NCBI GenBank assembly: GCA_037441705.1
Contig: JBBIRR010000009.1
Coordinates: 1 to 64,000 of the forward strand
Direction of reading: 5' to 3'
DNA from: Ignavibacteriales bacterium
Lineage (GTDB): Bacteria > Bacteroidota > Ignavibacteria > UBA10030 > UBA6906
Length of the DNA: 64,000 bases
Part shown: positions 19,336 through 46,021 of the stretch, piece by piece
Layout: every line of letters starts with the position of its first letter
Numbering within the stretch: the stretch's first letter is position 1
Translations under genes and position numbers: made by a program
The notes under the pieces: generated by a model
Seen by the model: only the letters and a program-made list of their open reading frames with translations
What the model was told of the DNA's origin: nothing
Database searches by the model: none

Positions 19336-20427
19336 TCAAGATGCAGAGCTATGCGCGAGCTGCGTCGGCGCCTGGCGGCGCTGTAGCATTCCGGCCGGTA
19401 CTCCCTTGCGCCGTATCGCGACCAGCTCTGCCACAATACTCAGCCCGATCTCTTCTGCCGTTAGGGCGCCGATATCAATGCCGATCGGAGCATGAACGGA
19501 AGCGAGACGTTCCTCCGCCAATCCCTTCTCACGAAGACGAGCAAACGTGGCAGCTACCTTCTTCGCACTCCCAATCATTCCTACATACTGCGCGTCGTAT
19601 TCGAGCACCTTCTCGAGGACCAGTTCATCGTGTCGGTGTCCTCGCGTAACGATCACGACGAACGTTGATGGCGTGATGGACAGTCGAGCAAATGTCTCAG
19701 CGAATCCTTCACACACTATCCGGTCAGCTTCCGGGAATCGTTCTCTGTTGGCAAACATCATACGATCATCCACAACAGTCACACGGAAGCCCGCCAGCGC
19801 TGCACACTGAGAGACAACTTTGCCGACGTGCCCGCCCCCGAAGATGACAAGAGGAGGCCGAGCCTCGATGAGTTCGGCCACATATTCAGCAGATCCCACC
19901 CGCACCCTCTCGATTGGATTCTCGCGCTTCAATCCCCCAATCGTCCTGCGAACATGTTCGCACGTCGTAGCGTCAAGCTCGTCCCCCGCGATCAATCGGC
20001 CATCCATCCCGCAGAGGCACTTCTTGATGCCTTGGCCTTCTTGCAGTACCGTAACAATCACAGAGTCGTTTCCCGCGGCTTCCTCCGCCACAACACGTTC
20101 AAAGACTGCGAGCATCGAATCATCAACCTGCTCAATCATCACCTCCACCTTTCCTCCGCAAATCAAACCCGTGTCCCCTACAGGATCATCAAGAGAGTAT
20201 GTGAAGAAATGCGGCTTCGTCAGTCGTTCGTGCTCTACTCTCCAGACGATTTCTGCATCGAGACACCCACCGCCGACCGTTCCTATGCTGGCGAGCGGAT
20301 CCGTGAAGCGCACGATCATGCGCGATTGCATTGGGGCAGGAGTGGAGCCTGAGGTCTTGATGATGGTTGCCAGCGCCGCAGTCTTCTCCTCACGCAGCAC
20401 TGTGCAAAGCTCTCTGAAGATTCTCAT
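19336..20427 (-). CDS. xdhC: XdhC/CoxI molybdoenzyme maturation factor
   Basis: GSTP..GTVGGGC, GLICGG, IFGGGHV, VTRGHRHD, YVGMIGS, APIGIDIG..EIGLSIVAE. Confidence 0.9.
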   Translation of the reverse strand: MRIFRELCTVLREEKTAALATIIKTSGSTPAPMQSRMIVRFTDPLASIGTVGGGCLDAEIVWRVEHERLTKPHFFTYSLDDPVGDTGLICGGKVEVMIEQVDDSMLAVFERVVAEEAAGNDSVIVTVLQEGQGIKKCLCGMDGRLIAGDELDATTCEHVRRTIGGLKRENPIERVRVGSAEYVAELIEARPPLVIFGGGHVGKVVSQCAALAGFRVTVVDDRMMFANRERFPEADRIVCEGFAETFARLSITPSTFVVIVTRGHRHDELVLEKVLEYDAQYVGMIGSAKKVAATFARLREKGLAEERLASVHAPIGIDIGALTAEEIGLSIVAELVAIRRKGVPAGMLQRRQAPTQLAHSSAS

Positions 20428-20989
20428 AATCTGCTACCGTATCAATATTCCGTATAACTCCGCTGTCCGGGCAGGGGACTTCCACCACGCTATCCCGATG
20501 TTGCCGGACAACAGCACGCGCGCCGATGGAAAGCGGCGCCTGTTTCAACTCTTGAAACAAAGTGGAAGGAAAGATTACAGGATGACCACGCTTCCCTTCA
20601 AACGTCGGCAGCACGAGAGCGGGTTGGTGAACGAGGAAACTTTCTACCAACGCATGGACGGTTCCGGCTGTAACCAACGGGTGATCAACGGGGTGGACGA
20701 TGACGGCGCTCGATTCTCCTCGCTCAGCTTCGGCAATGCCAACGATAAGCGACGAAAGTTGACCCCGCAGATAATCATGATTGACGACCACCGTGACATT
20801 CAAGTCCTTGATCTCCTCCCGCACATCATCAGCATGTGCGCCGAGTACGACGACAATGCGGGTGATGGCAGGATGGTTCAACGCCGCAATAATCCGTCGG
20901 ATGAATGTCTGCTTTCCAATCCTCAGCAGCGCCTTCGGGCGTCCCATTCGCTTCGACTCACCTGCGGCGAGGATGATGCCGGTAATCAT
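20390..20989 (-). CDS. mocA: Molybdenum cofactor cytidylyltransferase (MocA-like)
   Basis: ILAAGESKRMGRPKALL, PVDHP, GKRGHPV, NIDT; adjacent to XDH-family genes. Confidence 0.82.
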   Translation of the reverse strand: MITGIILAAGESKRMGRPKALLRIGKQTFIRRIIAALNHPAITRIVVVLGAHADDVREEIKDLNVTVVVNHDYLRGQLSSLIVGIAEAERGESSAVIVHPVDHPLVTAGTVHALVESFLVHQPALVLPTFEGKRGHPVIFPSTLFQELKQAPLSIGARAVVRQHRDSVVEVPCPDSGVIRNIDTVADYENLQRALHSAA

Positions 20990-20994
20990 GACGC

Positions 20995-22002
20995 TCAAGA
21001 ACTTATCAATTCAGCGAGGACTTTCCGCAAGAGTACCTTTGTCATCCTTCTTCGATAGCTCACAGTCTCCCCTATATTCGGAAGGGGCATGACATCTGCG
21101 GCCGCATGCTCAGCAGCATCTTCAATTCGATCGTCCGTCGGATGTTTTCCCTCCAGCACCAGCTCCGCCTCGTGCATTCTGAGCGGGGCGCTGGCCACAG
21201 CACCGATGAGAATGCGGAGATTCCGCAACGTGCCGTCTCCCTTCCTCTGGAAGGCAACGCCGACGTTCACAAGTGGATAGTCTATGGAACTGCGCTGCCG
21301 AAGCTTGCGATGCGCGGCGCGGAGTCCCGCCGGTGGCTCCGGCAGAAGTACCTCGGCGAGAATCTCTCCCGGCTTGAGTGCGAGATGGTGCACACCATCT
21401 TGTGTGTAGAACTCGGCAAGCGGCATCGTACGCTCGCCTGCTGCACTGACCAGGCGCACAGAAGCGTTTAGCGCGATGAGTAATGGCGCGGTGTCCGAAC
21501 TGAAAACTGCCGAGCAGACCGAGCGACCTGGTGCGGCATGACAGATGTCGTGACCGTCTCCTCCGTTGAGACGCAGCTTCAAACACCCGCCAAGGGCAAT
21601 CCGCCACGACTCGGATTCGTTATAGTAGTAGCAGCGCGTATCAAGACACAGATTGCCTCCGAGTGTCGCGCTGTTGCGAATGGCAGGTGACGCGACACTC
21701 TTTGCAGCGTTGGCGAGAGACGGATACGAGCCTCGTACTTCCGGCGAGCTTGCTATTTCCGCCAGCGTGCACATCGCTCCGATGGTGAGTCCGCCCTCTG
21801 CGCTCACCGAGATGCGACGTAGCTCCTTCATTCTTCCCAACCACACGAGCCGCTTTGGCGCATGCAATCCTTGTTTGAGGTTGGGAATGAGATCTGTCCC
21901 GCCTGCGAGGGTTTTGGTCTCGCCGTTCGAGTTAACCAGCGTCTCAATAAGCTCAGGAATAGACGCGGGCGCGAGCACATCAAGTTCCGGAAGTCGTATC
22001 AT
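20995..22002 (-). CDS. hcrB: 4-hydroxybenzoyl-CoA reductase beta-like subunit (FAD plus [4Fe-4S] insert)
   Basis: LAGGTDLIP, IRNSATLGGNLCLDTRCYYYN..W..CLK..CH..C; the Cys-rich insert is typical of HcrB. Confidence 0.75.
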   Translation of the reverse strand: MIRLPELDVLAPASIPELIETLVNSNGETKTLAGGTDLIPNLKQGLHAPKRLVWLGRMKELRRISVSAEGGLTIGAMCTLAEIASSPEVRGSYPSLANAAKSVASPAIRNSATLGGNLCLDTRCYYYNESESWRIALGGCLKLRLNGGDGHDICHAAPGRSVCSAVFSSDTAPLLIALNASVRLVSAAGERTMPLAEFYTQDGVHHLALKPGEILAEVLLPEPPAGLRAAHRKLRQRSSIDYPLVNVGVAFQRKGDGTLRNLRILIGAVASAPLRMHEAELVLEGKHPTDDRIEDAAEHAAADVMPLPNIGETVSYRRRMTKVLLRKVLAELISS

Positions 22003-24803
22003 TTCGCCCCCACCTCCAGTTCGGGTTTCTTCACTCGAAGAGCCTTCAGGATGTCGTCCGGAGTGAACGGAACAGAGCTCATCCGCACGCCGATGGCGTC
22101 ATAGATTGCATTGGCAATAGCCGGCGGAACGGCGAGCAGCGGACCTTCACCGGCTTCCTTCGCACCGAGCGGCCCTTCGGGATCGTTACTCTCGACGATA
22201 AAAACCTCGATCGGCGGCGTATCTAACGCGGTGGGAGTCTTGTACTCAAGAAGCGACGCGGCTCGGAGCAGACCGCCGGGTGTGGTTTTCGTCGCGCGTG
22301 TGTACTCCATGTTCTCAAACAGCGCCTCGCCAATCCCCATATACACGCATCCTTGAATCTGTCCTTCGACCAACGGTTTGTTGATAGCCTTACCGCAATC
22401 GTGCGCCGACCAAACGTTGTGAATGGTGATGTGCCCGGTTTCCTCATCGACGCTCAGTTCCACCGCGTGTGCTGTAAAAGAGTATGATGGAGAAGGGCCT
22501 GCGCCTGCCCCCTTGTACGTGCCGCCTAACTTCGGGGGCGTGTAGTAACCAACCGCCGAGAGCGTGCCGAACTTCGCTTCGGCAAGTCGTGTTGCCTCGA
22601 TGAAGCTGAGCTGCATCTCCGGATCGCGGGTGTAGATGACTCGACCGTTCAGGATTGCCAGGTCCTCGGTCCGCGTTTGGAGTTGTTCAGCGACCGCTTC
22701 AAGCAGCTTCTGCTTCAGTTCCCTCGCAGCCATGAGCACGGCGTTACCCGCCATGAACGTCACACGACTCGAATAGCTTCCGAGATCAACCGGCGTGAGG
22801 TGCGTATCAGCCTCGACAACTCTCACGCTCTGAAGCTCGATGCCCAGCGTTCGTGCAACGATTGTGGCAAGAACGGTGTTCGATCCCTGGCCGATATCCG
22901 ACGACCCGCAGAAGACCATCACGCCGCCGCCGCGATCAATCTTGACGATGGCGCCCGAGTGAGGCAGTCCGAGCCAGTTGATTTCCTTCCCCGCGCCGCT
23001 GATGTAGGCGCTTGCCGCGAGTCCGATCCCCCGCCCACGCGGAAGCTTGCCGCGCTTTGCGCGCCAACCCGATGCTTCCATCACCTTCTCGATACACTCC
23101 TTCACACCGCAACTCGTAATGCGCAGGGAGTTGATGGTGAGCGAATTCTGCTCGACGAGATTCTTCAAACGAAGTTCTGCAGGATCCATGCCGATCGCCT
23201 CTGCAATGCGGTCGAGATGCACCTCGAACGCGAAGCGGGGCTGTGGCGCGCCGTGTCCTCGCTTCGGGCCAGCAGGCGGTTTGTTGGTATACAGGCGCCG
23301 GCTCTCGAACTTGTAGTGTGGGACTTTGTACGGCATCGTGAGAAACTGCCCGCTGTAATACGATGTGACCACCCCGTAGCTGCCGTACGCTCCACCATCC
23401 AGCCAGCCTTTGTACTGAATGGCCGTGATCGTTCCGTCGTTCTTCACGCCGGTCTTCACCCACATCTTTGTTGCATGACGGCCGCGATGGGAGTAGAAGA
23501 CTTCTTCACGCGTGTAGGTGATTTTCACGGGGCGTCCCGTCTTGATCGAAAGCCACGCGGCGCAGAACTCCAGCGCAAACGGCTCCGACTTCCCGCCAAA
23601 CCCTCCACCAAGCTGCGGCTTGATGACGCGGATGTGACTCGCCGGCATGTCCAGCACCTTTGCCAAGGTCCGATGGACGTAATGTGGAGTCTGAGTAGCA
23701 GACCAGAGCGTGAGGTGGCCGTTCCTGAAATCTCCGTTCTCTCTCGCCGGCTCGAACGACGCAAGCGCGGCGTGCGGTTCGAGCATTGCGTGCGTGCTTG
23801 CATCGTAGAAGAACTCGTCCTCTCGAACGTAGTCTGCTTCGGCAAAGCCTTCTTCCACATTTCCAAACTCAAGCTCCACGTGCTTGGCGGTATTGTCCGG
23901 ATACCTGGTCTCTTCGTGAATCTTCGGAAGATCGGATCGGAGCGCATCTTTGATTGAAAGAATAACAGGAAGAAGTTCGTACTTCACCTCGATCAACCTG
24001 ATCGCTTCCTGCGCGATGCGTTCACTTGTGGCCGCAACGGCAGCCACGCCATCCCCCACATAGCGCACTTTGTCAATACACAACGCCGTCTCATCCTGAC
24101 TTGACGGAAGGATGCCGTATTTCGTCGGCAGGTCTTTTCCCGTCATGACGGCAACGACGCCCGGGAGCTTTTCTGCTCTTGACGTGTCGATGGAAAGGAT
24201 ACGTGCATGCGCGTGAGGACTGCGGAGAATTTTGGCGAAGAGCATGCGCGGGAGCGAGAGATCATCCGTGTACTTCGCTGCGCCGGTTACCTGTCCCACG
24301 GCATCCACCTTAATGCCCTGCTTCTCACACGCCCCTGCGCTTCGGTGGCCCTCGCATTGCACTGCTTCGATGATCTTTGTGTAGCCTGTGCAACGGCAGA
24401 GATTGCCGGAAAGTCTTTCGCGGATTTCTTCCTCCGTCAGCTTGCCGCCTTCGTCCATAAGCGACTTTGAAGTCAGGATCATCCCCGGGGTGCAGAAACC
24501 ACATTGCAAGGCCGCATGATCAATGAATGATCGTTGGATGGGGGAGAGCGTGCCATCTTTTGCTAGACCTTCGATTGTCTCGATCGCGCAGCCCTCAACA
24601 GTCACTGCCAGCGTAATGCACGAGAGAATCGGTTTCCCGTCGGCAAGCACGGTGCACGCGCCGCAATCGCCAAGGTCGCAGCCGATCTTCACGCCCGTGA
24701 GGCCGAGCTGTTCGCGCAGGACTTCGGCAAGCGTCCACTGCGGCTCGACGGCTACCTCGTGCCGCTCGCCGTTGACGGTGAGTGTAATGAGATGCTTTCC
24801 CAT
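21999..24803 (-). CDS. hcrA: Fused [2Fe-2S] (HcrC-like) and molybdopterin (HcrA-like) subunit, XDH family
   Basis: GCDLGDCGAC, QCGFCTPG, NLCRCTGY, then GGGFGGK, RGHGAPQ, DIGQGS, GSYSSR, GAKEAGEG; next to hcrB-like and bcr genes. Confidence 0.72.
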   Translation of the reverse strand: MGKHLITLTVNGERHEVAVEPQWTLAEVLREQLGLTGVKIGCDLGDCGACTVLADGKPILSCITLAVTVEGCAIETIEGLAKDGTLSPIQRSFIDHAALQCGFCTPGMILTSKSLMDEGGKLTEEEIRERLSGNLCRCTGYTKIIEAVQCEGHRSAGACEKQGIKVDAVGQVTGAAKYTDDLSLPRMLFAKILRSPHAHARILSIDTSRAEKLPGVVAVMTGKDLPTKYGILPSSQDETALCIDKVRYVGDGVAAVAATSERIAQEAIRLIEVKYELLPVILSIKDALRSDLPKIHEETRYPDNTAKHVELEFGNVEEGFAEADYVREDEFFYDASTHAMLEPHAALASFEPARENGDFRNGHLTLWSATQTPHYVHRTLAKVLDMPASHIRVIKPQLGGGFGGKSEPFALEFCAAWLSIKTGRPVKITYTREEVFYSHRGRHATKMWVKTGVKNDGTITAIQYKGWLDGGAYGSYGVVTSYYSGQFLTMPYKVPHYKFESRRLYTNKPPAGPKRGHGAPQPRFAFEVHLDRIAEAIGMDPAELRLKNLVEQNSLTINSLRITSCGVKECIEKVMEASGWRAKRGKLPRGRGIGLAASAYISGAGKEINWLGLPHSGAIVKIDRGGGVMVFCGSSDIGQGSNTVLATIVARTLGIELQSVRVVEADTHLTPVDLGSYSSRVTFMAGNAVLMAARELKQKLLEAVAEQLQTRTEDLAILNGRVIYTRDPEMQLSFIEATRLAEAKFGTLSAVGYYTPPKLGGTYKGAGAGPSPSYSFTAHAVELSVDEETGHITIHNVWSAHDCGKAINKPLVEGQIQGCVYMGIGEALFENMEYTRATKTTPGGLLRAASLLEYKTPTALDTPPIEVFIVESNDPEGPLGAKEAGEGPLLAVPPAIANAIYDAIGVRMSSVPFTPDDILKALRVKKPELEVGAK

Positions 24804-24927
24804 GAGAGGCTTTTATGAAATCTCAAATCTCAATACCCAAATCGCAAACAAGTTCCAAAACACAGGACTCAAACGCCCTCGATTTCTCATGATGTTTCTC
24901 TCTACCATGACGATACACGTTGAGATT

Positions 24928-25569
24928 TCAGATTTGACGATTGGAACTTGTTTGTAATTTGCCGTTTGTACATTGGGATTCCAGACTCAGCTTTTTCCCT
25001 TTTTCAAACGCTCGCAAATTCAAATCCAGAATTTTTGCATTCAGCGATTCCTTCATCACCGCCATCCAATGCTCATCGCCGATGCCGGTCTCATCAGCCA
25101 TTGCGCCAAGCAAGACGGTGTTCGCTGCGCGGAAGTTGCCGAGTTGCGTTGCGACGGCGTTGGCATCAAAACACACAACACGGAAGCCCTTGCCGTTCAA
25201 GAACTCCTCGATGTTCTGAGGATACTCCACCGGCTTGTCGGTGAGCCGGGCCGGGACGCGGATCTCATCGTTGATGACTATCAGTCCGCCCTCGCGGACG
25301 TAGTGTGCCCAACGAAGTGCTTCGAGTTTCTCCAGCGCAAGCAGGATGTCCACTTCACCTGCGGGTGTGAGCGGTGAATAGACTTTTCGTGCGAACCGGA
25401 CATGACTCACCACGCTGCCGCCGCGCTGGGCCGCACCGTGCACCTCAGTCTTCTTCGCATCGAATCCCGCAGCGATTGCCGCACGCGCCGCAAGCTCGGA
25501 GACAAGCAGGATTCCCTGTCCGCCCACGCCGGCAAAGAGGAGGTTCTTTCCTGAACTCTTCTGGTTCAT
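24928..25569 (-). CDS. iorB: Indolepyruvate:ferredoxin oxidoreductase beta subunit
   Basis: AGVGGQGILL, KTEVHGAAQRGGSVVSHVRF, ALEKLEALR, NTVLLGA. Confidence 0.9.
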   Translation of the reverse strand: MNQKSSGKNLLFAGVGGQGILLVSELAARAAIAAGFDAKKTEVHGAAQRGGSVVSHVRFARKVYSPLTPAGEVDILLALEKLEALRWAHYVREGGLIVINDEIRVPARLTDKPVEYPQNIEEFLNGKGFRVVCFDANAVATQLGNFRAANTVLLGAMADETGIGDEHWMAVMKESLNAKILDLNLRAFEKGKKLSLESQCTNGKLQTSSNRQI

Positions 25570-25714
25570 TTTTCTATCTTGAAAAATCCCAAATTGCAAG
25601 AAACAAATGGCAAACAAACCCCAATTATCAAATCACAAGTGGCCAGTCAAATCCCAAATAAGCACCAAGAGTCAAGCTCGAAAAGCCAAACACGATGTAA
25701 GCAACAATCCCTTG

Positions 25715-26071
25715 TCACTGAACCACCCGATAGATCACCATCGCAACGCCGCAGACAAAGATGGTGGTGAATATTGCCTTGTTATTCTTCGCCAGCCATT
25801 TCGGCAAGAAGATATCAAAGTTGTCGTCCCTTGAAGTGGTGAAGCGGGCAGCCACCGGAGTCAGAGGACAGCTTCCGTTGAAGGCGAGAAGGACGATTCC
25901 TTCCAGCACCACCAGTCCGATTGCATACCATACAAGGGCATCGATTCTGTTTCTGAGACCCGCATACACGACATAGCCGATCGCCATGACGAAGAACATC
26001 CATATCAAAGTGTGCAGTGACTTGACCAAGAGGAGTTTCTGGTCATTATTGAATGATCTATTACGCTTCAT
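25715..26071 (-). CDS. Small membrane protein (about 3 TM), unknown function
   Basis: VKSLHTLIW..CPLT..NFDIFLP.WLA; hydrophobic segments; overlaps the iorA stop. Confidence 0.7.
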   Translation of the reverse strand: MKRNRSFNNDQKLLLVKSLHTLIWMFFVMAIGYVVYAGLRNRIDALVWYAIGLVVLEGIVLLAFNGSCPLTPVAARFTTSRDDNFDIFLPKWLAKNNKAIFTTIFVCGVAMVIYRVVQ

Positions 26072-27842
26072 ACTCGATCCTTTGTACAGGTCGAATGGCC
26101 TCAAACGCGCACAGCTTCGCGCACAGATCGCAACCGACGCACCGTTCCTTCGAGATGTGTGGAATCGAGTCGAGACCTCCGATAGCCGGGCAGCCGATCT
26201 TCAGGCACAGGTCGCACTCTTCACACAGCTCGTCAATCACTTCGTACGGCACATGCGTCTTCGCTTTTTCTTCCGGAAGCAACACACACGGTCGCCGCGA
26301 GATGACAACGGACGGCTCTCCGCAGTTCATTGCCTCCTTGATCGCTTTCTCGGTTGCCGTCAGGTCATACGGATCAATCACGCTGACGTGCTTCACACCG
26401 ATGGCGCGAATGAGTTCCTCGTAATTGATCGCGTACGTGTCCTCGTTCTTCACCGTCTTCCCCATGCCCGGATGCTGCTGGTGTCCCGTCATGCCGGTCG
26501 TGGAGTTGTCCATGAGGATGACAGTGGAGATGCCTTTATTAAAGACGATATCAATGAGCGGCGCGATGCCGCTGTGGAGGAATGTCGAATCGCCGATGAC
26601 GGCAACGAGCTTCTTGCCGATCGTGGCTCGATGCACTTTCTCCATGCCGAACGCGTTGGCAACGCCGGCGCCCATGCAGAACGTCGTGTCGAGGGCGTTG
26701 AACGGATAGAGAGCGCCGAGAGTGTAGCAGCCGATGTCGCCCGTAACCACGGCCTTGAGTTTGTGCAGCACAAAGTAGACTCCGCTGTGCGGACAGCCGG
26801 GGCACATGACCGGTGGGCGGGGCGGGATGGAGATTTCCGACTCAAACGACGCACGGCCATTGGTTCCAAGCAACGCGTGTCGGAGAATATCGGGCGAAAG
26901 CTCGAACGTGTTGGGGATGAGTTCCTTCCCGACGAGATTCATCACTCCGAAGGGGTTCTTCACCCCCATGATCCTGAGCTGCTCCTCGAGGAACGGCTCC
27001 AATTCTTCGATGACATAAATCGTTTCGACGCCGTCGCAGAACGAATCAATGAGTTTCTTCGGGAGAGGATAGACCATGCCGAGCTTGAGAATCGAAGCCT
27101 GCGGGAAAACTTCCTTCGCGTACTGATACGAGATGCCGCTTGTGATGATGCCGATCTTGCGTTGATTCCACTCGATCATATTGTGCGGGAAAGTCTCGGC
27201 GAACTCCTCTAACTTCTTCAGTCGTTCTTGGATGTTCTTCCTCCAACGCTTCCCGTGTATCGGCACGACGTGTTTTGCGGGATCGGATTTGTACTTCCGC
27301 GGCGGCTGGCGGTGTGGCTCATCGAACGTCACCACCGACTTCGAGTGCGACGTGCGAGTCGTGGTCCGCAGGAACACCGGCACATCGAACTGCTCGCTGA
27401 TCTCAAACGCCAGCTTCACGAACTCCTTCGCTTCCTGGCTGTCGGAGGGTTCGAGCATCGGAATCTTGGCAAACTTCGCCAAGTAGCGGTTGTCCTGCTC
27501 GTTTTGGGAGGAGTGCATCCCCGGATCGTCTGCCGTGATGATGACAAAACCGCCATGCACGCCGGAGAACGGCGTGACCATGAGTGAGTCCAGCGCGACA
27601 TTGACGCCCACGTGCTTCATCGCAACCAGAGCGCGAGCACCGGCAAGACACGCACCATAGGCAACATCGAACGCCACCTTCTCGTTGGTGGACCATTCGA
27701 CGTCAATGTCTTCGTAGCGGGCGAGGTTTTCGATGATCTCGGTGCTCGGCGTGCCCGGATAGCCCGCTGCGACGTGCACACCCGCTTCCCACGCACCTCG
27801 TGCGATGGCTTCGTTGCCGGAAACGAAATGGCTATTGCTCAT
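26061..27842 (-). CDS. iorA: Indolepyruvate:ferredoxin oxidoreductase alpha subunit
   Basis: SGNEAIARGA, GYPGTPSTE, MKHVGVNVA, SSQNEQD, MCPGCPH, GDIGCY, TPP motif GDSTFLHSG..DN, C-terminal 2x[4Fe-4S]. Confidence 0.93.
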   Translation of the reverse strand: MSNSHFVSGNEAIARGAWEAGVHVAAGYPGTPSTEIIENLARYEDIDVEWSTNEKVAFDVAYGACLAGARALVAMKHVGVNVALDSLMVTPFSGVHGGFVIITADDPGMHSSQNEQDNRYLAKFAKIPMLEPSDSQEAKEFVKLAFEISEQFDVPVFLRTTTRTSHSKSVVTFDEPHRQPPRKYKSDPAKHVVPIHGKRWRKNIQERLKKLEEFAETFPHNMIEWNQRKIGIITSGISYQYAKEVFPQASILKLGMVYPLPKKLIDSFCDGVETIYVIEELEPFLEEQLRIMGVKNPFGVMNLVGKELIPNTFELSPDILRHALLGTNGRASFESEISIPPRPPVMCPGCPHSGVYFVLHKLKAVVTGDIGCYTLGALYPFNALDTTFCMGAGVANAFGMEKVHRATIGKKLVAVIGDSTFLHSGIAPLIDIVFNKGISTVILMDNSTTGMTGHQQHPGMGKTVKNEDTYAINYEELIRAIGVKHVSVIDPYDLTATEKAIKEAMNCGEPSVVISRRPCVLLPEEKAKTHVPYEVIDELCEECDLCLKIGCPAIGGLDSIPHISKERCVGCDLCAKLCAFEAIRPVQRIEYEA

Positions 27843-27997
27843 ATGGTTCATTGTGAAATTCCAAATATCAAATGCCAGGTTCCAAAGAAGCTCCAAGAAT
27901 CAAGTTCCAAATTCAAAGAGGGTTCTTCGATGTCGACTTTTTCTTTTTGATATTTGGAACTTGTTTGTGATTTGGAGCTTGATGTTTGGAACTTAGT

Positions 27998-32114: not shown

Positions 32115-32128
32115 AGATGGATGCCTTA

Positions 32129-36089: not shown

Positions 36090-36191
36090 CCAACCATTTT
36101 ACAGATAGTGAAAAACAGGTGTTTGTTTTTGGATTGTGGAGATTGGAACTTGTTTGTGATTTGAAACTTGACATTTCGCATTTCAGGACAT

Positions 36192-39231: not shown

Positions 39232-39319
39232 AGACTCGCCTTGTGTGTTTGGTCAACAGGATTTGCAATTTGTTTATTGGAACTTCTTTGAGATTTGCCA
39301 TTTGGTTGTTGGGGATTTT

Positions 39320-41629
39320 CTAGAGGGGATATCGCCTCCTGAAGTTTGGAAACGTCCCCTTCACCGCCGCCTCGAGTCCGATCAGCGCATCAGGATGCTC
39401 AAAGACCGGCCGTAGATGGTGCTCAAGCTCAAAGGCGGCGAGCGTCTTGTTGTCAACGCCGCTGATGAACCCTTCAAAGCCGCGCGCAATCAGATAGTCT
39501 GCCACGCACACCGCGTGCGGAGAGGCAGCCACCACGCGCCGCAGCGCTCTCGACGCGATTGCTTCAAGCTCGCCGGTGAATCCCACCTTCACGTGACCGC
39601 GAGCCTGAGCATAGAGTGTCGGCAGAAGATCAGCCTGATTGAACAGGTCACGGGCGACATGCAGCTCTTGCCGATCAGCCAGGGACAATCCTGTTTCCAA
39701 CCGCTCGAAGGTGAGCGCGTCGATCTGTTTCCCTTCAATCATTCTGCCGCCGTTTTCGATGATGGCGTGAGCAATCACATCGGCTGCATCGTCGCGCCGA
39801 TGCTGAGGAACGACGACGTCGGCAAAACCCAGGTGATACAGAAGCTGCGGAGAAGACGTCGGGATGCCTCCTGCAAGCATGTAGTAGCGTGCAAGCGCAA
39901 CGGCTAGCTCCGCATCGTTCGTCTTTTTGTAGATGACTTGCGGAAACGTGAGCGTACCGCGCAAACCGGGATAGATGCCGAGACGCGTTTCAGGAAGCGA
40001 GAAGGTCGTGCGATTGGTGATGAGAACGATCGCGTTCGGGTCGAGAGCAAACGCACATGCCACTTCAACCCCGCCGCCGAATGCCTGTCCATCCACGATC
40101 GCGATCTTCGGCTTGGACGTTCCTGTCATGACCTCGAAGATGACCTGCTGCCATTCTTCCGTGTCACGCTTGATGGCATCAAAATCCTGTGCCTTGATTC
40201 TCTCGATAAACGTTGGAATGTGTGCCCCGGCAATAAAGGTTTTGATCGGCGCAGTATCGAAGATGATGACCTTGCAGTCGTCATCCCCGTTTGCCTCCTT
40301 GAATTGCTGCTTCAACTCGGCGAAGACCTCGTTGCTCATAGCGTTGGCAGCACGAGGATTTGAGAGTGTGATCCGGCGGACGGCGCCGTTGCGCTCATGC
40401 TCCGTGTACACCGTTGAGAGGCGGAACCGCCACGGCGTTGCCACACCCATCTCTTCTTTGAGGAGATTGCAGATGGGGAAATCCTGCTTGAACGTTTTTG
40501 CAAGCTCGGCGCGTTGCAGGATAATCTCATGCACCTTCTTCTTGCCGATCTTATTCATCAGCGTGAACGGTCCCTCTCGCCAGAGAAACGCATTTTGCGT
40601 CAGCAACTCGAGGTCTTCAATCGTAATCAATCCGGCATCAACCGTCTCCGTTGCCGTGAGAAAGCCGATGGCGAGAAAGCGGTTAGAAAGAGCCTCAATG
40701 GTTTGGGGTTCGGGGGTCGACGTTTGGGAGCTGCTGTCGTGAACCCAGCGGACTGTTGACTTGTCGGCTGCTGCGTTGTAGCACTCGATCAGCTGAACGT
40801 AATTCTGCCGGGGCGTGAAGAAGTTTCCATAGACGCTGAAGAGGGGATCATTCGGATTGGACGAATCCGAGAACGAACGCATGGAGTGGAGACCAACGGG
40901 GAGTCCGGTGACATCCATCAGCTCCAGAAAACCGACGGGGATGCCGTAGGCCTGCTTGCCCGCAGCTTCTACGGTCGCCACATCGAACCCTTCCTCTAAC
41001 ATTCGTGTGGCTTCAAGCAGCAGCGCAACGAAGATAATGTCAGCAACACCTCCTTTGCGGCTCCCGCGAATGTGTGTGGGGATTTTCCCGCCGAGCTTGA
41101 GGTACCTTCGCGCAAGCGCCTTGCTCTCTTCGGAGGCAGTCTCCGTACCCGCATACTCTCCGGCTCTGTTCTTGTGCGGAAGATAGAAGTAGTGCATCCA
41201 CACGACTTTGTGGGGACGTTTGGTGACAGCAGCGAGAGTGTTCGTATCGAGCGAGGAGGAGTTTGATGCAAGAACAACGTGCGGAGCGGCAAGCGAGTCG
41301 AGGCAGCGGAAGATTTCCTGTTTGATGTCGAGCCGCTCGGTGGCTGCTTCGATCACGAGCTTGAGGTTCGATCCCTTGCAGGCTTCGCTGTAGCTGGTCG
41401 TGCCGATGATTCGCTCGCGGATTGCTCGCACCTCGGCCGGCGAGAAGATCTTTCCTTTGGCGCGTTCAAGCTCATGCGCGATCGTCTGGAACCCGCGCTG
41501 GAGGATTTCGCCCGAGACATCCAACAAGCCCACGTGGAAGCCGCTCTGCGCGTACGTCTGCGCGAGACTTGCACCCATCGTGCCCGCGCCGACGATGAGA
41601 AGCTCTATGTTATTCCAGGACGTCTTCAT
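39320..41629 (-). CDS. Bifunctional 3-hydroxyacyl-CoA dehydrogenase (N-terminal) / enoyl-CoA hydratase (C-terminal)
   Basis: VGAGTMG, IEAATE, ASNSSSL, WMHYF; then AFGGGVE and LPETRLGIYPG. Confidence 0.85.
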   Translation of the reverse strand: MKTSWNNIELLIVGAGTMGASLAQTYAQSGFHVGLLDVSGEILQRGFQTIAHELERAKGKIFSPAEVRAIRERIIGTTSYSEACKGSNLKLVIEAATERLDIKQEIFRCLDSLAAPHVVLASNSSSLDTNTLAAVTKRPHKVVWMHYFYLPHKNRAGEYAGTETASEESKALARRYLKLGGKIPTHIRGSRKGGVADIIFVALLLEATRMLEEGFDVATVEAAGKQAYGIPVGFLELMDVTGLPVGLHSMRSFSDSSNPNDPLFSVYGNFFTPRQNYVQLIECYNAAADKSTVRWVHDSSSQTSTPEPQTIEALSNRFLAIGFLTATETVDAGLITIEDLELLTQNAFLWREGPFTLMNKIGKKKVHEIILQRAELAKTFKQDFPICNLLKEEMGVATPWRFRLSTVYTEHERNGAVRRITLSNPRAANAMSNEVFAELKQQFKEANGDDDCKVIIFDTAPIKTFIAGAHIPTFIERIKAQDFDAIKRDTEEWQQVIFEVMTGTSKPKIAIVDGQAFGGGVEVACAFALDPNAIVLITNRTTFSLPETRLGIYPGLRGTLTFPQVIYKKTNDAELAVALARYYMLAGGIPTSSPQLLYHLGFADVVVPQHRRDDAADVIAHAIIENGGRMIEGKQIDALTFERLETGLSLADRQELHVARDLFNQADLLPTLYAQARGHVKVGFTGELEAIASRALRRVVAASPHAVCVADYLIARGFEGFISGVDNKTLAAFELEHHLRPVFEHPDALIGLEAAVKGTFPNFRRRYPL

Positions 41630-41799
41630 GATGCTCAAGCTTCTGTGCCCAAGCTCCAATAATCAAGTTCCAAGTCCCAAAGAAATTCCAAATCCCAACT
41701 CTCCAGTCTCAACACCGAACCTGCTGGCGAGCACGGCTATTGGAAATTTGAACACTGGAGCTTCTTTGTGATTTGTCATTTGTGTTGCTGGAATTTCTA

Positions 41800-43053
41800 T
41801 TACACGTATCCTTCGACAATCAGCGCGCCGCCCTGACCGCCGCCAATGCATGCGCTGGCAAGGCCGAAACCGCCGAGCTTGAGCAGCGCAATCGTCATCC
41901 GTGCGCCGGTTGCACCGAGCGGATGCCCTAACGCAATCGCTCCGCCGTTCAGGTTCACTTTTGTTCGATCAAGGTCAAGCTCGCGCTCAACGGCGAGGTA
42001 CTGTCCGCCGAACGCCTCGTTGATCTCAATGTGCTTCAGGTGTTTCCACGTAAGCCCGGCGCGCTTCAATGCAATTATTGATGCAGGGACGGGACCGATT
42101 CCCATGTAATGCGGGTCGACGCCGGCAACGCCCCAGGAAATAAGCTCACCGATCGGCTCGACGCCCAACTCTTTTGCCTTGCGCGCAGTCGTCATGACAA
42201 GCGCCGCGGCACCATCCACAATGCCGGATGAGTTGCCGCCCGTGTGCACGCCGTCGGGTTTCACAGACGGAAGTTTCGCAAGAGCAGCGAGCGTTGTATC
42301 GGGACGGGGGTTTTCGTCGGTAGAAAGAATGCGCTCCTGTCTTCCTTCACGAATCACCACCGGCGTGATCTCTTTGCTGAGCCGGCAGCGTTCCTGTGCT
42401 TCCTTCGCCTTCATCTGTGACGACAGTGCGAACGCATCCACCTCCTCGCGCGTGATGCCGTACAGGCGAACGAGATTCTCGGCCGTCCCCATCATGTCGT
42501 TGTTGATAAAAGTATCGGTGAGTCCATCCTTGAAGAGGAACATCATTCGCGGCCCAAGCATGTACGGAAAGCCAAATGCCGCCCCGTACACAAGCATCGG
42601 GGATTGCGAGGTGCTTTCGTAGCCGCCAACGATCACAACCTCGGCCTCGCCGCCCAGCAGCTCCTTCGCTCCCTGCACAATCGCCTCGCCTCCCGACCAG
42701 CAGATGCGGTTCACGGTGAGAGCGGTAGAGAAGTGTGAGAGACCCGCCTTCAGCGCGACATGCCGTGCCCCATAGTGCGAGTCAATGCTCGTGTGCATGC
42801 CGTTGCCGAAGATGGCAGCGTCAATCACCTCGGTACGATCCGCGAGGCTTGCTTGTTCGATGGCCGCCCGCGCTGCCAGCACGCCGAGATCAATCGACGA
42901 AAAGTCTTTCAGGCTTCCGCCGACGCGACCGAATGGTGTGCGCGTCGCTGAAAGAAAAACGATGCGTTCGCCAGAGTTCCGCTTGAACCACGGTAGGCCG
43001 GCGGGTTTCTCCTCTTTCACATGATAGAGGATCGTGTCAATCTTCTTTCCCAT
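41800..43053 (-). CDS. Thiolase (acetyl-CoA acyltransferase)
   Basis: RTPFG, NRICWSG, INEAF, GHPLGATG, CIGGGQG. Confidence 0.93.
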   Translation of the reverse strand: MGKKIDTILYHVKEEKPAGLPWFKRNSGERIVFLSATRTPFGRVGGSLKDFSSIDLGVLAARAAIEQASLADRTEVIDAAIFGNGMHTSIDSHYGARHVALKAGLSHFSTALTVNRICWSGGEAIVQGAKELLGGEAEVVIVGGYESTSQSPMLVYGAAFGFPYMLGPRMMFLFKDGLTDTFINNDMMGTAENLVRLYGITREEVDAFALSSQMKAKEAQERCRLSKEITPVVIREGRQERILSTDENPRPDTTLAALAKLPSVKPDGVHTGGNSSGIVDGAAALVMTTARKAKELGVEPIGELISWGVAGVDPHYMGIGPVPASIIALKRAGLTWKHLKHIEINEAFGGQYLAVERELDLDRTKVNLNGGAIALGHPLGATGARMTIALLKLGGFGLASACIGGGQGGALIVEGYV

Positions 43054-43471
43054 TCATCGTCCGCCAGATGGTGTTGAGCGTATTGATGAATTCTGATTCT
43101 TGTTGTGGGGAAAATGATCTCATCGCGTCGCGGTTGATCACCTCAGCAATGGCACTTGCACTCTGCGCGAGAGCTTTCCCTTTGGGGGTAAGAAAAACAT
43201 TGATGACGCGTCGGTCGCCGGCGACGCGGCGCCGTTCGACAAGCCCGTCGCGCTCCATCCGATCCACAATGCCGGTGATCGTCGGATTATCGAAGTAGAG
43301 TTTTTGTCCGAGCAGCGAGAGCGACGCTCCATCATGTTCACGCAGAGCTTCGAGCACGATGTACTGAGTCGCGGTGATGTTATGTTCGGAGAGTCGGGCT
43401 TCGAGCGCGCGCTTCATGCTGCGGGCCGCCCGCGCAAGAAGGAAGCCCACGCTCCCGTCGAGAGCGTTCAT
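43037..43471 (-). CDS. MarR-family regulator (BadR-like position)
   Basis: ITATQYIVL..TITGIVDRMERDGLVER..DRR..LTPKG; first gene of the aromatic operon. Confidence 0.92.
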   Translation of the reverse strand: MNALDGSVGFLLARAARSMKRALEARLSEHNITATQYIVLEALREHDGASLSLLGQKLYFDNPTITGIVDRMERDGLVERRRVAGDRRVINVFLTPKGKALAQSASAIAEVINRDAMRSFSPQQESEFINTLNTIWRTMNGKED

Positions 43472-43627: not shown

Positions 43628-44890
43628 TCAGACCATCCTTCTCGGGTCGGTAATCACCCCGGCCACCGCCGACGCTGCCGCCACGGCCGGACTTGCGAGG
43701 AAGACTTTGCTTGTCGGGTGACCGTTGCGGCCCTTGAAGTTCCGGTTGGTGGTGTAGAGGCCCACTTCGTTCTCGGCGAGGATGCCCATGTGGCCGCCGA
43801 TGCACGGGCCGCAGGTCGGCGGACTGATAGTTGCGCCCGCTTCAACGAATACCTTCAGCAACCCCTCGTCAATCATCTGCAAATACACTTGCTGCGTTGC
43901 AGGAATCACAATCATGCGCACGTCGGGCGCGACTTCACGTCCGCGCAGGAGTTCAGCGGCGATGCGAAAATCCTCAATGCGTCCGTTGGTGCAGGAGCCG
44001 AGAACCACCTGATCGATCTTTATAGAATCAATTTGTGAGATCGGTTTAACGTTGCTCGGAAGATACGGAAGCGCTACTTGTGGCTCCAGATCGGTGACAT
44101 CAATCTCCATCACCTGTGCATACTCAGCGTCTGGGTCGGAGTGGTGGATGACATACGCGCGGTCACTACGGCCGCGGATGAACTCCAGCACCTTCTCATC
44201 CGCCTCGGTGATGCCGCCTTTCGCTCCGGCTTCAATCGCCATGTTGCAGAGCGTGAACCGATCCGCAAGCGGAAGCTGCTCCACAACCTCTCCGGTAAAC
44301 TCGATCGAGGCATAGATTGCGCCCTCGACTCCGAGGATGCCGATCGTGTGGAGAATCAAATCCTTCCCTCCAACAAATTCTCCCAGTTTGCCTTTGTAAA
44401 CGATCTTGATTGACGGCGGCACTTTGAACCAATTCTCCCCTAACGCCCACGATGCGGCCATGTCGGTACTGCCAACGCCTGTGGCAAATGCACCGAGCGC
44501 CCCGTAGGTGCACGTGTGGGAGTCCGCACCGATGACGAGGTCGCCCGGCATCACAAGCCCGCTCTCCGGCACGATGCAGTGACAGAGACCCGAGCGACCG
44601 ACTTCGAAATAACTCTCGATACCGTACGTCTGGGCGAACTCGCGCATCGTTTTGGAGAGACCGGCCGCCTGAATGTCCTTCGCCGGCACAAAGTGGTCGT
44701 TGACGAGGGCAATCTTCGTCCGATCGAACACATCATCGGCGCCGATCCTGTTGAACACTTCGACCGCAAGTGGGACGGTAACATCCGTCCCCATGACAAG
44801 ATCAATGCGGGCGTAGACAAGTTCGCCGGGCCGCACAACATCACGATCCGCGTGCGCGGCGAAGATTTTTTCGGTGATGGTCATTGGCAT
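43628..44890 (-). CDS. Isopropylmalate/homoaconitate dehydratase large subunit (LeuC/HacA-like)
   Basis: MTITEKI, DHFVP, GADSHTCTYGA, GSCTNGR, CGPCIG, TNRNFKGR, LASPAVAAASA. Confidence 0.92.
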   Translation of the reverse strand: MPMTITEKIFAAHADRDVVRPGELVYARIDLVMGTDVTVPLAVEVFNRIGADDVFDRTKIALVNDHFVPAKDIQAAGLSKTMREFAQTYGIESYFEVGRSGLCHCIVPESGLVMPGDLVIGADSHTCTYGALGAFATGVGSTDMAASWALGENWFKVPPSIKIVYKGKLGEFVGGKDLILHTIGILGVEGAIYASIEFTGEVVEQLPLADRFTLCNMAIEAGAKGGITEADEKVLEFIRGRSDRAYVIHHSDPDAEYAQVMEIDVTDLEPQVALPYLPSNVKPISQIDSIKIDQVVLGSCTNGRIEDFRIAAELLRGREVAPDVRMIVIPATQQVYLQMIDEGLLKVFVEAGATISPPTCGPCIGGHMGILAENEVGLYTTNRNFKGRNGHPTSKVFLASPAVAAASAVAGVITDPRRMV

Positions 44891-44935
44891 GGTTGAGCCT
44901 CCATATTATAGACTGTTACGCTCGGCGAGGTTGAG

Positions 44936-46021
44936 TTAATCGCTGGCGGCACCTGACTTCAACACCTCCAGTACAGCCTCGCCGGCTTCACGCGTTCCCA
45001 GTGTTCCGCCGAGATCGCTTGTTGTCTTGTTCTCGCGAACGGCCTGCCGCACCGCCTGTTCCACAAGTTCGCCTTCCGCTGTGAAGCCAAGGTGCTCCAG
45101 CATCAGCGCGGCAGTGAGGATAGCACCGAAAGGATTTGCAACATTCTTGCCGGCGTATTTGGGTGCCGAGCCATGCACCGGCTCGAACATGCACACGCCG
45201 TTCGGGTTGATGTTGCCCGATGCTGCCATGCCCAGCCCGCCTTGCAGTTGCGCGCCGATATCCGTGATGATGTCGCCGAACATGTTGTTGGTGACAATCA
45301 CCTGAAATTGCTCCGGTCGTTTGATCATCTGCATCGCCAGTGCATCTATGAACCAGTGCTCTTTCTCGATATCGGGGTACTGCTCGCCGACCTCCTGAAA
45401 GACGCGATACCACAGGTCGCCCTCGAAGCGCAGCGCATTGTTCTTATCGCTCATCGTCACCTTCGAGTGACCGTGTGTTCTGGCATACTCGAATGCGTAG
45501 CGGATGATCCGCTCGACGCCTTTGTACGTGTTCACGCTTTCCTGCACCGCAACTTCGTCTTTGGTTCCCTTCTTGAAGATGCCTCCCATGCCGACGTACA
45601 GCCCTTCGGTGTTTTCACGGAAGACAACGAAGTTCACATCTTCCACACTCTTTCCTTTCAACGGACAGAGTTTTTCATCGAACAGCTTCACCGGACGGAA
45701 GTTGACATACAGGTCGAGGCCGAACCGCATACCGAAGAGAATATCCCGCGCATGAGCCATGTCGGGAATACGCGGGTCGCCGAGCGCGCCGAGAAAGATC
45801 GCGGCGTAGTTCTCGCGGAAATCCTCAAGCTGTTCTTTGGGCAGCGAGATGCCGCTGCGCAAATACTTCTCTGCGCCGAAATCAAATTGCACAAGCTCAA
45901 GATCGAGCGCGCGGCTTGACGCGATGAACTCAAGGACCTTCACCGCTTCGCGAGTGACTTCAAGACCGATGCCGTCGCCGGGAATCACGGCAATCTTATG
46001 CCGAGAAGAAGGTATCATCAT
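44936..46021 (-). CDS. Beta-decarboxylating dehydrogenase (LeuB/homoisocitrate/tartrate DH family)
   Basis: IPGDGIGLEV, RENTEGLY, DKNNA, NMFGDIITD, FEPVHGSAP. Confidence 0.9.
   Translation of the reverse strand: MMIPSSRHKIAVIPGDGIGLEVTREAVKVLEFIASSRALDLELVQFDFGAEKYLRSGISLPKEQLEDFRENYAAIFLGALGDPRIPDMAHARDILFGMRFGLDLYVNFRPVKLFDEKLCPLKGKSVEDVNFVVFRENTEGLYVGMGGIFKKGTKDEVAVQESVNTYKGVERIIRYAFEYARTHGHSKVTMSDKNNALRFEGDLWYRVFQEVGEQYPDIEKEHWFIDALAMQMIKRPEQFQVIVTNNMFGDIITDIGAQLQGGLGMAASGNINPNGVCMFEPVHGSAPKYAGKNVANPFGAILTAALMLEHLGFTAEGELVEQAVRQAVRENKTTSDLGGTLGTREAGEAVLEVLKSGAASD

Follow-up and report, generated by a model that had tools for sequence, protein, structure and literature searches.

A LeuABCD-type gene set in a benzoyl-CoA cluster of Ignavibacteriales: a candidate catabolic module for 2-oxoacid homologation

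We analyzed a 64,000-nucleotide stretch of DNA (the window: positions 1 to 64,000 of contig JBBIRR010000009.1, our contig C9) from the Ignavibacteriales assembly GCA_037441705.1, a 3.83 Mb genome of 92 contigs with 100% completeness and 0.6% contamination. The nearest public loci are labelled as Ignavibacteria or Bacteroidota metagenome bins. Between positions 19336 and 46021 all genes are on the minus strand and separated by short gaps, as judged from the list of open reading frames (ORFs) and NCBIfam profiles. In minus-strand order they are leuB, leuC, marR, a thiolase gene, a fused hydroxyacyl-CoA dehydrogenase/enoyl-CoA hydratase (HAD/ECH) gene, leuD, LeuA*, oah, a short-chain dehydrogenase/reductase (SDR) gene, a DUF2889 gene and an enoyl-CoA hydratase gene; then bcrC, an HNH-like ORF, bcrB, bcrA, bcrD, a Had-like gene, iorA, a small ORF and iorB; and finally a fused hcrC/A, hcrB, mocA and xdhC. 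LeuA* is our name for a short LeuA-family synthase of 417 aa. The four Leu-like genes, and what they are doing among genes for the anaerobic degradation of aromatic rings, are the subject of this study. An earlier note on this DNA, made from the sequence alone, had placed the named genes here, and the ORFs and NCBIfam profiles bear it out, with all of them on the minus strand.

We identified proteins by NCBIfam scores relative to NCBI curated cut-offs, given below in bits as score/cut-off, together with Pfam domains. The LeuB-type 3-alkylmalate dehydrogenase (44936-46021; NF002898, 423/393) and the large subunit of the LeuC-type dehydratase (43628-44890; TIGR02083, 649/611) exceed the cut-offs for isopropylmalate enzymes, and the LeuD-type small subunit (38683-39231; TIGR02084, 245.5/245.85) falls 0.3 bit short. 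LeuA* (37316-38569) has an HMGL-like domain (PF00682, E 2e-44) as its only Pfam domain, the C-terminal LeuA_dimer regulatory domain not being found. It carries the condensing-enzyme motifs RDGLQ, HGHND, GERCGN and TGVHAAA and a post-barrel subdomain, and lies far under all NCBIfam LeuA, CimA and homocitrate synthase (HCS) cut-offs (best NF002085, 208/517; TIGR00973, 157/599).

The ring-pathway genes are identified with varying certainty. The 6-oxocyclohex-1-ene-1-carbonyl-CoA hydrolase Oah (36192-37319; TIGR03200, 574/464) and IorA (26061-27896; TIGR03336, 707/651) pass their cut-offs and IorB (24928-25617; NF005322, 221/237) is slightly under. By its score IorA is a certified indolepyruvate-type (arylpyruvate) ferredoxin oxidoreductase (IOR). 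The protein called Had (27998-29026; TIGR03201, 277/339) is a Zn-dependent dehydrogenase equally close, when compared by sequence with solved structures, to ordinary alcohol dehydrogenases and to Had. The hydratase called Dch (33974-34837; TIGR03189, 173/292) is not a certified Dch. Class I benzoyl-CoA reductase (BCR) is represented by four genes in the order C-B-A-D (29023-33896; TIGR02263, TIGR02260, TIGR02259, TIGR02261), of which A and D encode the two different ATPase subunits, paralogues 45% identical to one another. All four subunits are under cut-off (B 465/487, C 371/421, A 235/578, D 174/313); BcrB and BcrC come near it, with scores more than twice those on hydroxyacyl-CoA dehydratase models. 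bcrC and bcrB are separated by a 192-aa ORF (32129-32707, minus strand) with a weak HNH-endonuclease match. Among the loci examined this ORF is common only to the window and L006; it is possibly a mobile endonuclease gene inserted into the reductase operon. The subunits resembling 4-hydroxybenzoyl-CoA reductase (Hcr) are likewise all under cut-off: a fused gamma-alpha HcrC/A (21999-24803; TIGR03194, 923/995, and TIGR03193, 178/258) and the beta subunit HcrB (TIGR03195, 290/405), which with the MocA and XdhC maturation genes fills the cluster from HcrC/A down to 19336. Five Cys of the Hcr beta subunit fall between residues 119 and 163, in a part of the protein skipped by xanthine-dehydrogenase models; a Cys-rich [4Fe-4S] insertion in this subunit is a feature of 4-hydroxybenzoyl-CoA reductase.

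The remaining enzymes are a thiolase (41800-43053; TIGR01930, 369/241), a 779-aa FadB/FadJ-type fusion with HAD at residues 19-265 and ECH at residues 421-660 (39320-41659), and a FabG-like SDR (35337-36089; NCBIfam). A DUF2889 protein (34741-35202; PF11136, E 3e-19) and a 129-aa ORF without a family match in NCBIfam or Pfam (25715-26104, minus strand), which lies in the 443-nt gap between iorA and iorB, complete the cluster, together with a MarR-family regulator (43037-43471). The regulator has generic OhrR/MarR matches only, in NCBIfam and among solved regulators in the PDB, with no specific likeness to the CouR type; tblastn finds it kept at the equivalent position in loci L005, L008-L011 and L040.

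Several features are indirect signs that these genes may be co-regulated. The LeuA* stop codon and the oah start codon share the sequence ATGA, an overlap noted earlier and confirmed by reading the sequence, and marR overlaps the start of the thiolase gene by 17 nt. Moreover, eight copies of a repeat of about 61 nt (family D1) occupy intergenic gaps on the minus strand between 24919 and 41793, from the thiolase|HAD-ECH gap to the iorB|hcr gap (24919-24979, 27932-27992, 30787-30847, 33907-33967, 35272-35332, 36121-36181, 39255-39315 and 41733-41793). The copies are placed just past stop codons, with the HAD-ECH|leuD gap included, and all four genome-wide matches to a strict 20-nt form of the repeat fall inside this cluster. 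The repeat is C/A-rich on the mRNA strand, with short CAAA/CCAA-like units, and several copies have an inverted partner nearby with which long hairpins could form; the repeat may act in translation, in the processing or stability of RNA, or as a site for a regulator. The leuB-leuC, marR-upstream and leuD-leuA* gaps have no copy of it, and relatives do not conserve its sequence, the close relative L006 having a similar short periodic repeat of different sequence. In a promoter and terminator scan, a kind of scan that says little for this phylum, counts were not above those in shuffled sequence; a strong sigma-70-like site lies upstream of leuB (46185-46213).

The association between LeuA* and the ring pathway extends well beyond this genome. 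Searching with the window proteins by tblastn, we compared 80 loci with LeuA* relatives, comprising eight close relatives at 83-93% identity and 72 others at 56-64% from Acidobacteriota, Gemmatimonadota, KSB1, Chloroflexota, Eisenbacteria, Planctomycetota and other groups. In 14 of the 80 (L004-L011, L040, L044, L047, L049, L054 and L077), oah is no more than 10 kb away from LeuA*; Bcr subunits are near LeuA* in 10 loci, LeuC in 7, LeuD in 13 and LeuB in 11. The earlier proposal of a complete LeuA/B/C/D-type set linked to the ring pathway is supported. The gene order of the window recurs in the Ignavibacteria-like relatives and in one KSB1 genome, whose locus L040 keeps the whole order leuB-leuC-marR-thiolase-HAD/ECH-leuD-leuA*-oah-SDR beside reductase genes only 26-41% identical to those of the window; thus the conserved unit is the Leu-like and lower-pathway genes, not one reductase type. 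In Acidobacteriota (L044, L047, L049, L053, L054, L077) LeuA* adjoins dch-oah-had, hcr, bcr or iorAB in other orientations, and in L049 a true Had, scoring 468 bits on TIGR03201, sits with oah. IorAB again adjoins LeuA* in L049 and in L070 from Anaerolineae, where the order is Liv-type ABC transporter, CoA ligase, iorA, iorB, leuA*.

In Gemmatimonadota the module is flanked by class I/II aminotransferases (HisC-family and others), acyl-CoA dehydrogenase (ACAD), electron-transfer flavoprotein (ETF), HAD, ECH, thiolase and 2-oxoacid:ferredoxin oxidoreductases. Locus L071 reads ECH, ACAD, HisC-family aminotransferase, leuB, leuC, leuD, HAD, amidohydrolase, ECH, leuA*, SDR, thiolase, Dch-like ECH, one ORF without assignment, Had-like, ETF beta and ETF alpha; L015 reads Had-like, HAD, HAD, ECH, two 2-oxoacid:ferredoxin oxidoreductases, leuA*, aminotransferase, leuC, leuD and leuB. 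The best relatives of the window Had-like and Dch-like proteins (56-70% identity) are in these Gemmatimonadota sets: Had-like orthologues at 61-70% adjoin the module in L015 and L071, and Dch-like orthologues at 56-59% adjoin LeuA* or Oah. LeuB orthologues (57-68% identity) adjoin LeuA* in KSB1 and Gemmatimonadota, and SDR orthologues adjoin LeuA* or Oah in L040, L049, L053, L071 and G001. Of five genomes in which LeuA* occurs with LeuCDB or beta-oxidation genes and oah is not nearby, four have oah elsewhere, over cut-off in three and as a fragment at a contig end in one. In a quick maximum-likelihood tree of 81 rows (one sequence shorter than 350 aa was excluded, and L053 and L078 had no LeuA* ORF called), a clean split divides LeuA* from both canonical LeuA and an HCS-like paralogue, and no fewer than four label changes are required to account for the ring-linked rows, at least two of them forced by well-supported branches alone. 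The gene arrangement is more than chance: the order recurs in relatives and in KSB1, and LeuA* and oah are again close to each other in other gene orders.

What might the synthase elongate? The nearest solved structure to LeuA* is the homocitrate synthase 6KTQ (SaHCS), and a search of the ESM Atlas returned only unnamed LeuA-family clusters. Five substrate-selecting positions are tabulated in PMC12961565 as A/D/A/M/S in HphA, H/R/T/S/H in HCS and L/E/S/N/E in isopropylmalate synthase (IPMS), the Ala at position 1 mattering most, according to that source, for HphA specificity. Mapped by HMMER alignments to 6KTQ and 3RMJ and by a MAFFT alignment, the LeuA* residues are Ala96, Met160, Val162, Val190 and His250; A96, M160, V162 and H250 are invariant in all 79 LeuA* family sequences, and position 4 is Cys in 59 of the 79. 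Relative to the tabulated residues, LeuA* has none of the five IPMS residues, shares only the fifth-position His with HCS (and has RDGLQ in place of REGEQ), and agrees with HphA at position 1 and differs at positions 2-5. As a control, positions 2-5 of the same alignment hold Glu, Ser, Asn and Glu in the canonical LeuA of both G003 and G005 (position 1 is gapped, with Leu assigned by eye two residues before the conserved Arg), and the HCS-like paralogue of G003 shows H/R/T/S with REGEQ. We take His97, Asn167 and Pro169 of E. coli LeuA to be the positions enlarged in engineered variants that accept bigger keto acids; at the presumed equivalents LeuA* has Ala (or Cys, Ser, Gly), Val/Cys and Ala/Cys. 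As judged by these residues, LeuA* is a third specificity type of the LeuA family with a non-polar pocket, features that fit a bulky non-polar substrate and argue against 2-oxoglutarate, oxaloacetate and 2-oxoadipate.

The partner enzymes were examined in the same way. LeuD has the loop motif RYCTA(F), without Arg, as do its relatives, with RYCTS in L040 and L071; we assume this to be the specificity loop, where homoaconitases have an Arg for the extra carboxylate. Isopropylmalate models give LeuB, LeuC and LeuD higher scores than the methanogen Aks/Hac models do, and the nearest solved relative of LeuB is the isopropylmalate dehydrogenase of M. tuberculosis, followed by tartrate dehydrogenase.

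Two other roles for LeuA* were considered. That of a Re-citrate synthase was dropped, the genome having two ordinary citrate synthases and the pocket being non-polar. That of an HMG-CoA-lyase-like enzyme, suggested by the RDGLQ motif and by hydratase and biotin-carboxylase neighbors in Thermoanaerobaculia, is unlikely, as the synthase motifs and C-terminal subdomain are kept. Databases name the LeuA* family 2-isopropylmalate synthase, a label that is probably wrong.

One rival reading is dicarboxylate homologation. The earlier note had proposed elongation of 2-oxoglutarate to 2-oxoadipate, either for shikimate-independent ring synthesis or for catabolism that supplies reduced ferredoxin to BCR; in a variant, glutaryl-CoA would be carboxylated to 2-oxoadipate, elongated to 2-oxopimelate, decarboxylated to adipyl-CoA and beta-oxidized to succinyl-CoA, replacing glutaryl-CoA dehydrogenase. 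In keeping with this, LeuA* is linked most tightly to oah, the gene of a pathway that leads to glutaryl-CoA, and this link holds where class I BCR is not found; there is no clear glutaryl-CoA dehydrogenase among the two ACADs of the genome, both of which score higher as butyryl/acryloyl-type; in G001 LeuA* is immediately preceded by two different 2-oxoacid oxidoreductases; and the position 5 His is common to LeuA* and HCS in the table cited. Both of the proposals in the earlier note are nevertheless argued against by the pocket, since Ala, Met and Val replace the carboxylate-binding His, Arg and Thr tabulated for HCS at positions 1-3 and RDGLQ replaces REGEQ, and by the missing Arg of the LeuD loop. 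The scores of LeuB, LeuC and LeuD on the isopropylmalate models and the membership of IOR in an arylpyruvate enzyme family also count against a dicarboxylate, and the glutaryl-CoA route would waste a thioester relative to glutaryl-CoA dehydrogenase. Ring synthesis independent of shikimate is not needed, chorismate synthase being present in the genome. We consider dicarboxylate homologation unlikely.

The genome also bears on whether these are simply its leucine genes. Besides LeuA*, a six-frame HMM search and tblastn found a single HMGL-like gene, which resembles that for HMG-CoA lyase and lies on contig C2, and no other LeuA. The acetolactate synthase gene ilvB, ilvC and ilvD were not found in this 100% complete genome, with models that match in all 14 control genomes, and the usual supply of the leucine precursor 2-oxoisovalerate is therefore missing. 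Among five other LeuA* genomes, both with ilvD also have a canonical long LeuA, and in the three that lack ilvD no HMGL-like gene other than LeuA* occurs. The distribution of LeuA* thus does not follow that of the branched-chain pathway. In a sample of 301 genomes of the class, counting that of the window, LeuA* is found in three, LeuC over the TIGR02083 cut-off in the same three, and Oah in 27 that include those three. In twelve other oah loci of the class that we fetched, Oah is about 52% identical, the cluster is of a different type, and LeuA* is in none. The Leu-like genes, confined to the same three genomes, all with oah, are therefore an accessory set traveling with this cluster. The LeuABCD-type set is not housekeeping leucine biosynthesis.

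A leucine role could persist in the form of salvage: these would be the genome's only leucine genes, making leucine from 2-oxoisovalerate derived from imported valine or from isobutyryl-CoA via a ferredoxin oxidoreductase, and would have come to lie in the cluster through operon shuffling only. The isopropylmalate-type scores of LeuB, LeuC and, nearly, LeuD agree with this, as do the status of LeuA* as the sole LeuA-type gene and the presence of a VorB-like oxidoreductase on contig C2. Salvage is quite unlikely, however, in view of a synthase that lacks the regulatory domain and all five IPMS residues of the table and scores 208 against a cut-off of 517, of the canonical LeuA that ilvD genomes hold as well as LeuA*, of the confinement of the genes within the class to three genomes with this cluster, and of a linkage to oah, IorAB, ACAD/ETF and class I/II aminotransferases that recurs across phyla. 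The earlier note had allowed that the linkage might not be conserved, or that these might be ordinary leu genes; instead, the ilv genes were not found and the linkage recurs. We conclude that the four genes probably serve homologation outside leucine synthesis, as a module with a functional tie to this catabolic cluster.

A second Leu-like set lies on contig C2 (L001, C2:8000-27000, genes at about 383-13737). Its order is a butyryl-CoA:acetate-type CoA transferase, VorB-like oxidoreductase alpha, beta and gamma, LeuB-like, the HMG-CoA-lyase-like gene, an unknown gene, a CaiB-type CoA transferase, LeuC-like, another unknown and LeuD-like, with LeuA absent; it could be a reversible, lyase-plus-CoA-transferase version of the isopropylmalate pathway. 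LeuC of the C2 type, which falls short of the LEU2 cut-off, is frequent in the class, with about 86 of 301 genomes having it. PMC6338057 describes, for a related lineage, leuBCD without leuA and without valine and isoleucine synthesis.

We tentatively propose that the four genes form an accessory, horizontally shared "+1" 2-oxoacid homologation module for arylpyruvate catabolism. An aminotransferase encoded elsewhere would convert phenylalanine or tyrosine to (4-hydroxy)phenylpyruvate; alternatively, IorAB would carboxylate arylacetyl-CoA to arylpyruvate. LeuA* would condense the arylpyruvate with acetyl-CoA to a benzylmalate, LeuCD would isomerize it, and LeuB would decarboxylate it oxidatively to 2-oxo-4-arylbutyrate. 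IorAB would then yield 3-arylpropionyl-CoA and reduced ferredoxin, which can feed BCR. An acyl-CoA dehydrogenase, a hydratase, a dehydrogenase and a thiolase would shorten the side chain to (4-hydroxy)benzoyl-CoA and return acetyl-CoA, the candidates for hydratase and dehydrogenase being the HAD/ECH fusion, the Dch-like hydratase and the Had-like enzyme or the SDR. Finally, Hcr would remove the hydroxyl group, and BCR and Oah would reduce and open the ring. The net conversion would be of arylpyruvate to aroyl-CoA and two CO2. The benefit would be that arylpropionyl-CoA can be beta-oxidized, whereas arylacetyl-CoA, the ordinary IOR product, cannot; alpha-oxidation of phenylacetyl-CoA would be avoided, and neither it nor an ammonia-lyase would be needed.

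Several features of the genome fit this arylpyruvate pathway. Entry via a 2-oxoacid oxidoreductase is plausible because no benzoate-CoA ligase over cut-off (the best match is an acetate-CoA ligase) and no PadG-type phenylglyoxylate oxidoreductase were found in the genome. Phenylacetyl-CoA has no recognizable onward route among the predicted proteins, and Hcr would fit the tyrosine branch. The IorAB, aminotransferase and beta-oxidation neighbors of the module suggest catabolism of amino-acid-derived aryl keto acids. More tentatively still, we suggest that catabolic elongation of (4-hydroxy)phenylpyruvate gives aromatic amino acids a new anaerobic way into the benzoyl-CoA pathway; such a route appears common to Ignavibacteria, KSB1, Acidobacteriota and Gemmatimonadota. 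Catabolic homologation ahead of IorAB and beta-oxidation was absent from the earlier note and fits more of the parts than the alternatives listed there.

In the remaining one of those alternatives, IorAB would carboxylate (hydroxy)benzoyl-CoA to an arylglyoxylate, and the module would elongate it to an arylpyruvate for phenylalanine and tyrosine. It is partly compatible with the data, as the non-polar pocket would also take phenylglyoxylate, the linkage to IorAB is real, and aminotransferases adjoin the module in other phyla. We nonetheless find it very doubtful: a de novo route exists, given the chorismate synthase of the genome; IOR enzymes are known for arylpyruvates, and phenylglyoxylate is handled by a separate Pad type; and the ACAD, ETF, hydratase, dehydrogenase and thiolase genes of L071, L015 and L060 would have no role. 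Very improbable, too, is elongation of 2-oxoisocaproate or another branched keto acid for leucine beta-oxidation, bypassing biotin carboxylase and HMG-CoA lyase, with a shared amino-acid-fermenting lifestyle as the link to ring genes: it accords with the non-polar pocket, with the likeness of LeuB, LeuC and LeuD to isopropylmalate enzymes, with the class IV (branched-chain) aminotransferase, ACADs and thiolases around oah in G001, with HAD-ECH(-ACAD)-LeuA* arrangements and the hydratase and biotin-carboxylase genes downstream in Thermoanaerobaculia, and with the lack of another HMGL-like gene in G001, G002 and G004, but it does not explain why oah, Hcr, BCR and IorAB recur as neighbors, and the window genome has its own HMG-CoA-lyase-like gene.

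The proposed arylpyruvate module must itself be weighed against a number of observations that speak against it. Substrates and reaction directions are predicted from sequence, and LeuA* agrees with HphA at only one of the five tabulated positions. Because LeuC and LeuB pass, and LeuD nearly passes, the isopropylmalate cut-offs, an aliphatic isopropylmalate-like substrate is possible. The cluster holds no aminotransferase and no acyl-CoA dehydrogenase, the only two ACADs of the genome (butyryl-type) and its one ETF lying elsewhere; the thiolase and HAD/ECH are not specific evidence, because they are needed anyway for 3-hydroxypimeloyl-CoA. Twenty-four of the 27 oah genomes of the class are without LeuA*, so the module is optional for ring degradation. 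Of another 29 LeuA* genomes, 6 have Oah over cut-off and 1 has it split at contig ends; in the other 22, which include Blastocatellia, Marinacidobacterales, Thermoanaerobaculia, Gemmatimonadales and Eisenbacteria, it was not identified. LEU2-type LeuC was not found in G002 and G004, both with LeuA*, and the general role of the LeuA* family therefore cannot be the full proposed pathway. Lastly, class I BcrB was not found in 6 of 11 oah-bearing LeuA* genomes, including the complete chromosome G001.

Those six genomes and G306, which has a weak BcrB match, were searched for AOR-family genes, which are present in G001; six of the seven have several each, a family assignment that alone does not decide for a class II reductase. 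On the complete Gemmatimonadota chromosome G001, Oah is 77% identical to that of the window and lies at L108 (C1:2214000-2233900) in the order oah-SDR-thiolase-ECH, with a class IV aminotransferase, two ACADs and two further thiolases around it. Unrelated genes surround oah in three other genomes of Gemmatimonadota-like type (L107, L110 and L111, the last by tblastn only). Oah of the G001 type is either fed by a class II reductase or alicyclic substrates, or has a different role.

The proposed pathway can be compared with several known systems. LeuABCD-type leucine biosynthesis has the same four families and the same chemistry of acetyl-CoA condensation, isomerization and oxidative decarboxylation that adds one CH2; in contrast, the synthase of the window is without the regulatory domain and the IPMS residues, there is no ilv substrate supply, and the genes are accessory and interleaved with catabolic ones. 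In methanogens, AksA, AksD-E and AksF repeatedly elongate dicarboxylic keto acids by one carbon for coenzyme B. These too are LeuABCD homologues elongating 2-oxoacids outside leucine synthesis, but the window proteins are under the Aks/Hac models and score higher on isopropylmalate models. Thauera-type clusters combine bcrCBAD, dch, had and oah with a 2-oxoacid:ferredoxin oxidoreductase that regenerates the reductase ferredoxin; the window cluster shares the bcrCBAD order, oah and a ferredoxin-reducing 2-oxoacid oxidoreductase, and differs in having IOR, not KOR, in Had and Dch that are under cut-off and in the interleaved Leu-like module. Phenylpropanoid-CoA esters are beta-oxidized to (4-hydroxy)benzoyl-CoA under the control of MarR-type regulators such as CouR, and the window likewise has a MarR-led operon with thiolase and hydratase/dehydrogenase genes beside Hcr and BCR; unlike such systems it has no CoA ligase in the cluster, the proposed feed being a homologated keto acid via IorAB. 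HphABCD, a LeuABCD-derived module of cyanobacteria, homologates phenylpyruvate and 4-hydroxyphenylpyruvate to precursors of homo-phenylalanine and homo-tyrosine (PMC12961565). On what that source gives, HphA acts on arylpyruvates and shares with LeuA* both the Ala at the key position and the nearest solved structure (SaHCS, 6KTQ); at positions 2-5 the tabulated residues are D/A/M/S in HphA against M/V/C|V/H in LeuA*, and Hph is biosynthetic, for peptide natural products, unlike the catabolic context of the window.

The enzyme families and chemistry of LeuABCD-type elongation are already known. On the evidence of predicted proteins and gene order, three aspects are new: a clade of the LeuA family that is widespread and has a specificity signature of its own; the transfer of this clade together with LeuBCD, in several phyla, within clusters for anaerobic aromatic or alicyclic CoA esters; and the use, which is likely, of chain elongation in catabolism. 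To our knowledge, one-carbon elongation of 2-oxoacids has been known only as biosynthetic, in the formation of leucine, lysine, coenzyme B, glucosinolates and homo-amino acids. In the literature outside subscription journals and supplements we found no Leu-like module in a benzoyl-CoA cluster and no catabolic homologation route. Here a complete set with a synthase of new specificity occurs in anaerobic aromatic-degradation clusters of several little-studied phyla, in host genomes that, as described, would be unable to make branched-chain amino acids. Were it to feed the benzoyl-CoA pathway, it would provide a new entry for aromatic amino acids in anoxic sediments and the subsurface, and calls of "leucine biosynthesis" in such genomes would need a different reading. 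Even with another substrate, LeuA* would represent a widespread family, about 60% identical across phyla, that is mis-named isopropylmalate synthase.

The LeuA* family also has solitary members. In many Acidobacteriota (L012-L039 and others) LeuA* stands alone among unrelated genes, for example those for an M20 peptidase or LpxA; these relatives are about 60% identical and keep all the pocket residues. G002 and G004 are large genomes in which LeuA* occurs without ilvD, another HMGL-like gene or LEU2-type LeuC.

The commoner oah cluster of the class (L084-L095, from 12 other genomes) contains BcrA/D-like ATPases, a distant BcrB-like protein, thiolase, had, oah, dch and HAD, with proteins only 28-53% identical to those of the window. 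L092 and L093 carry both this cluster and an acidobacterial-type bcrCBAD.

The flanks of the window (614-8723 and 50932-61688) hold oxygen- and metal-stress genes by Pfam, among them genes for a catalase-peroxidase, a superoxide dismutase and a multicopper oxidase with a type IX secretion system (T9SS) sorting tail. A trio of ArsR, MerT-HMA and pyridine-nucleotide-disulfide-reductase genes resembles a mer operon, and a SUF iron-sulfur assembly cluster is split by a PIN-domain gene at 57441-57824. The stress genes suggest that the organism is facultative or microaerotolerant, which would suit an ATP-dependent reductase.

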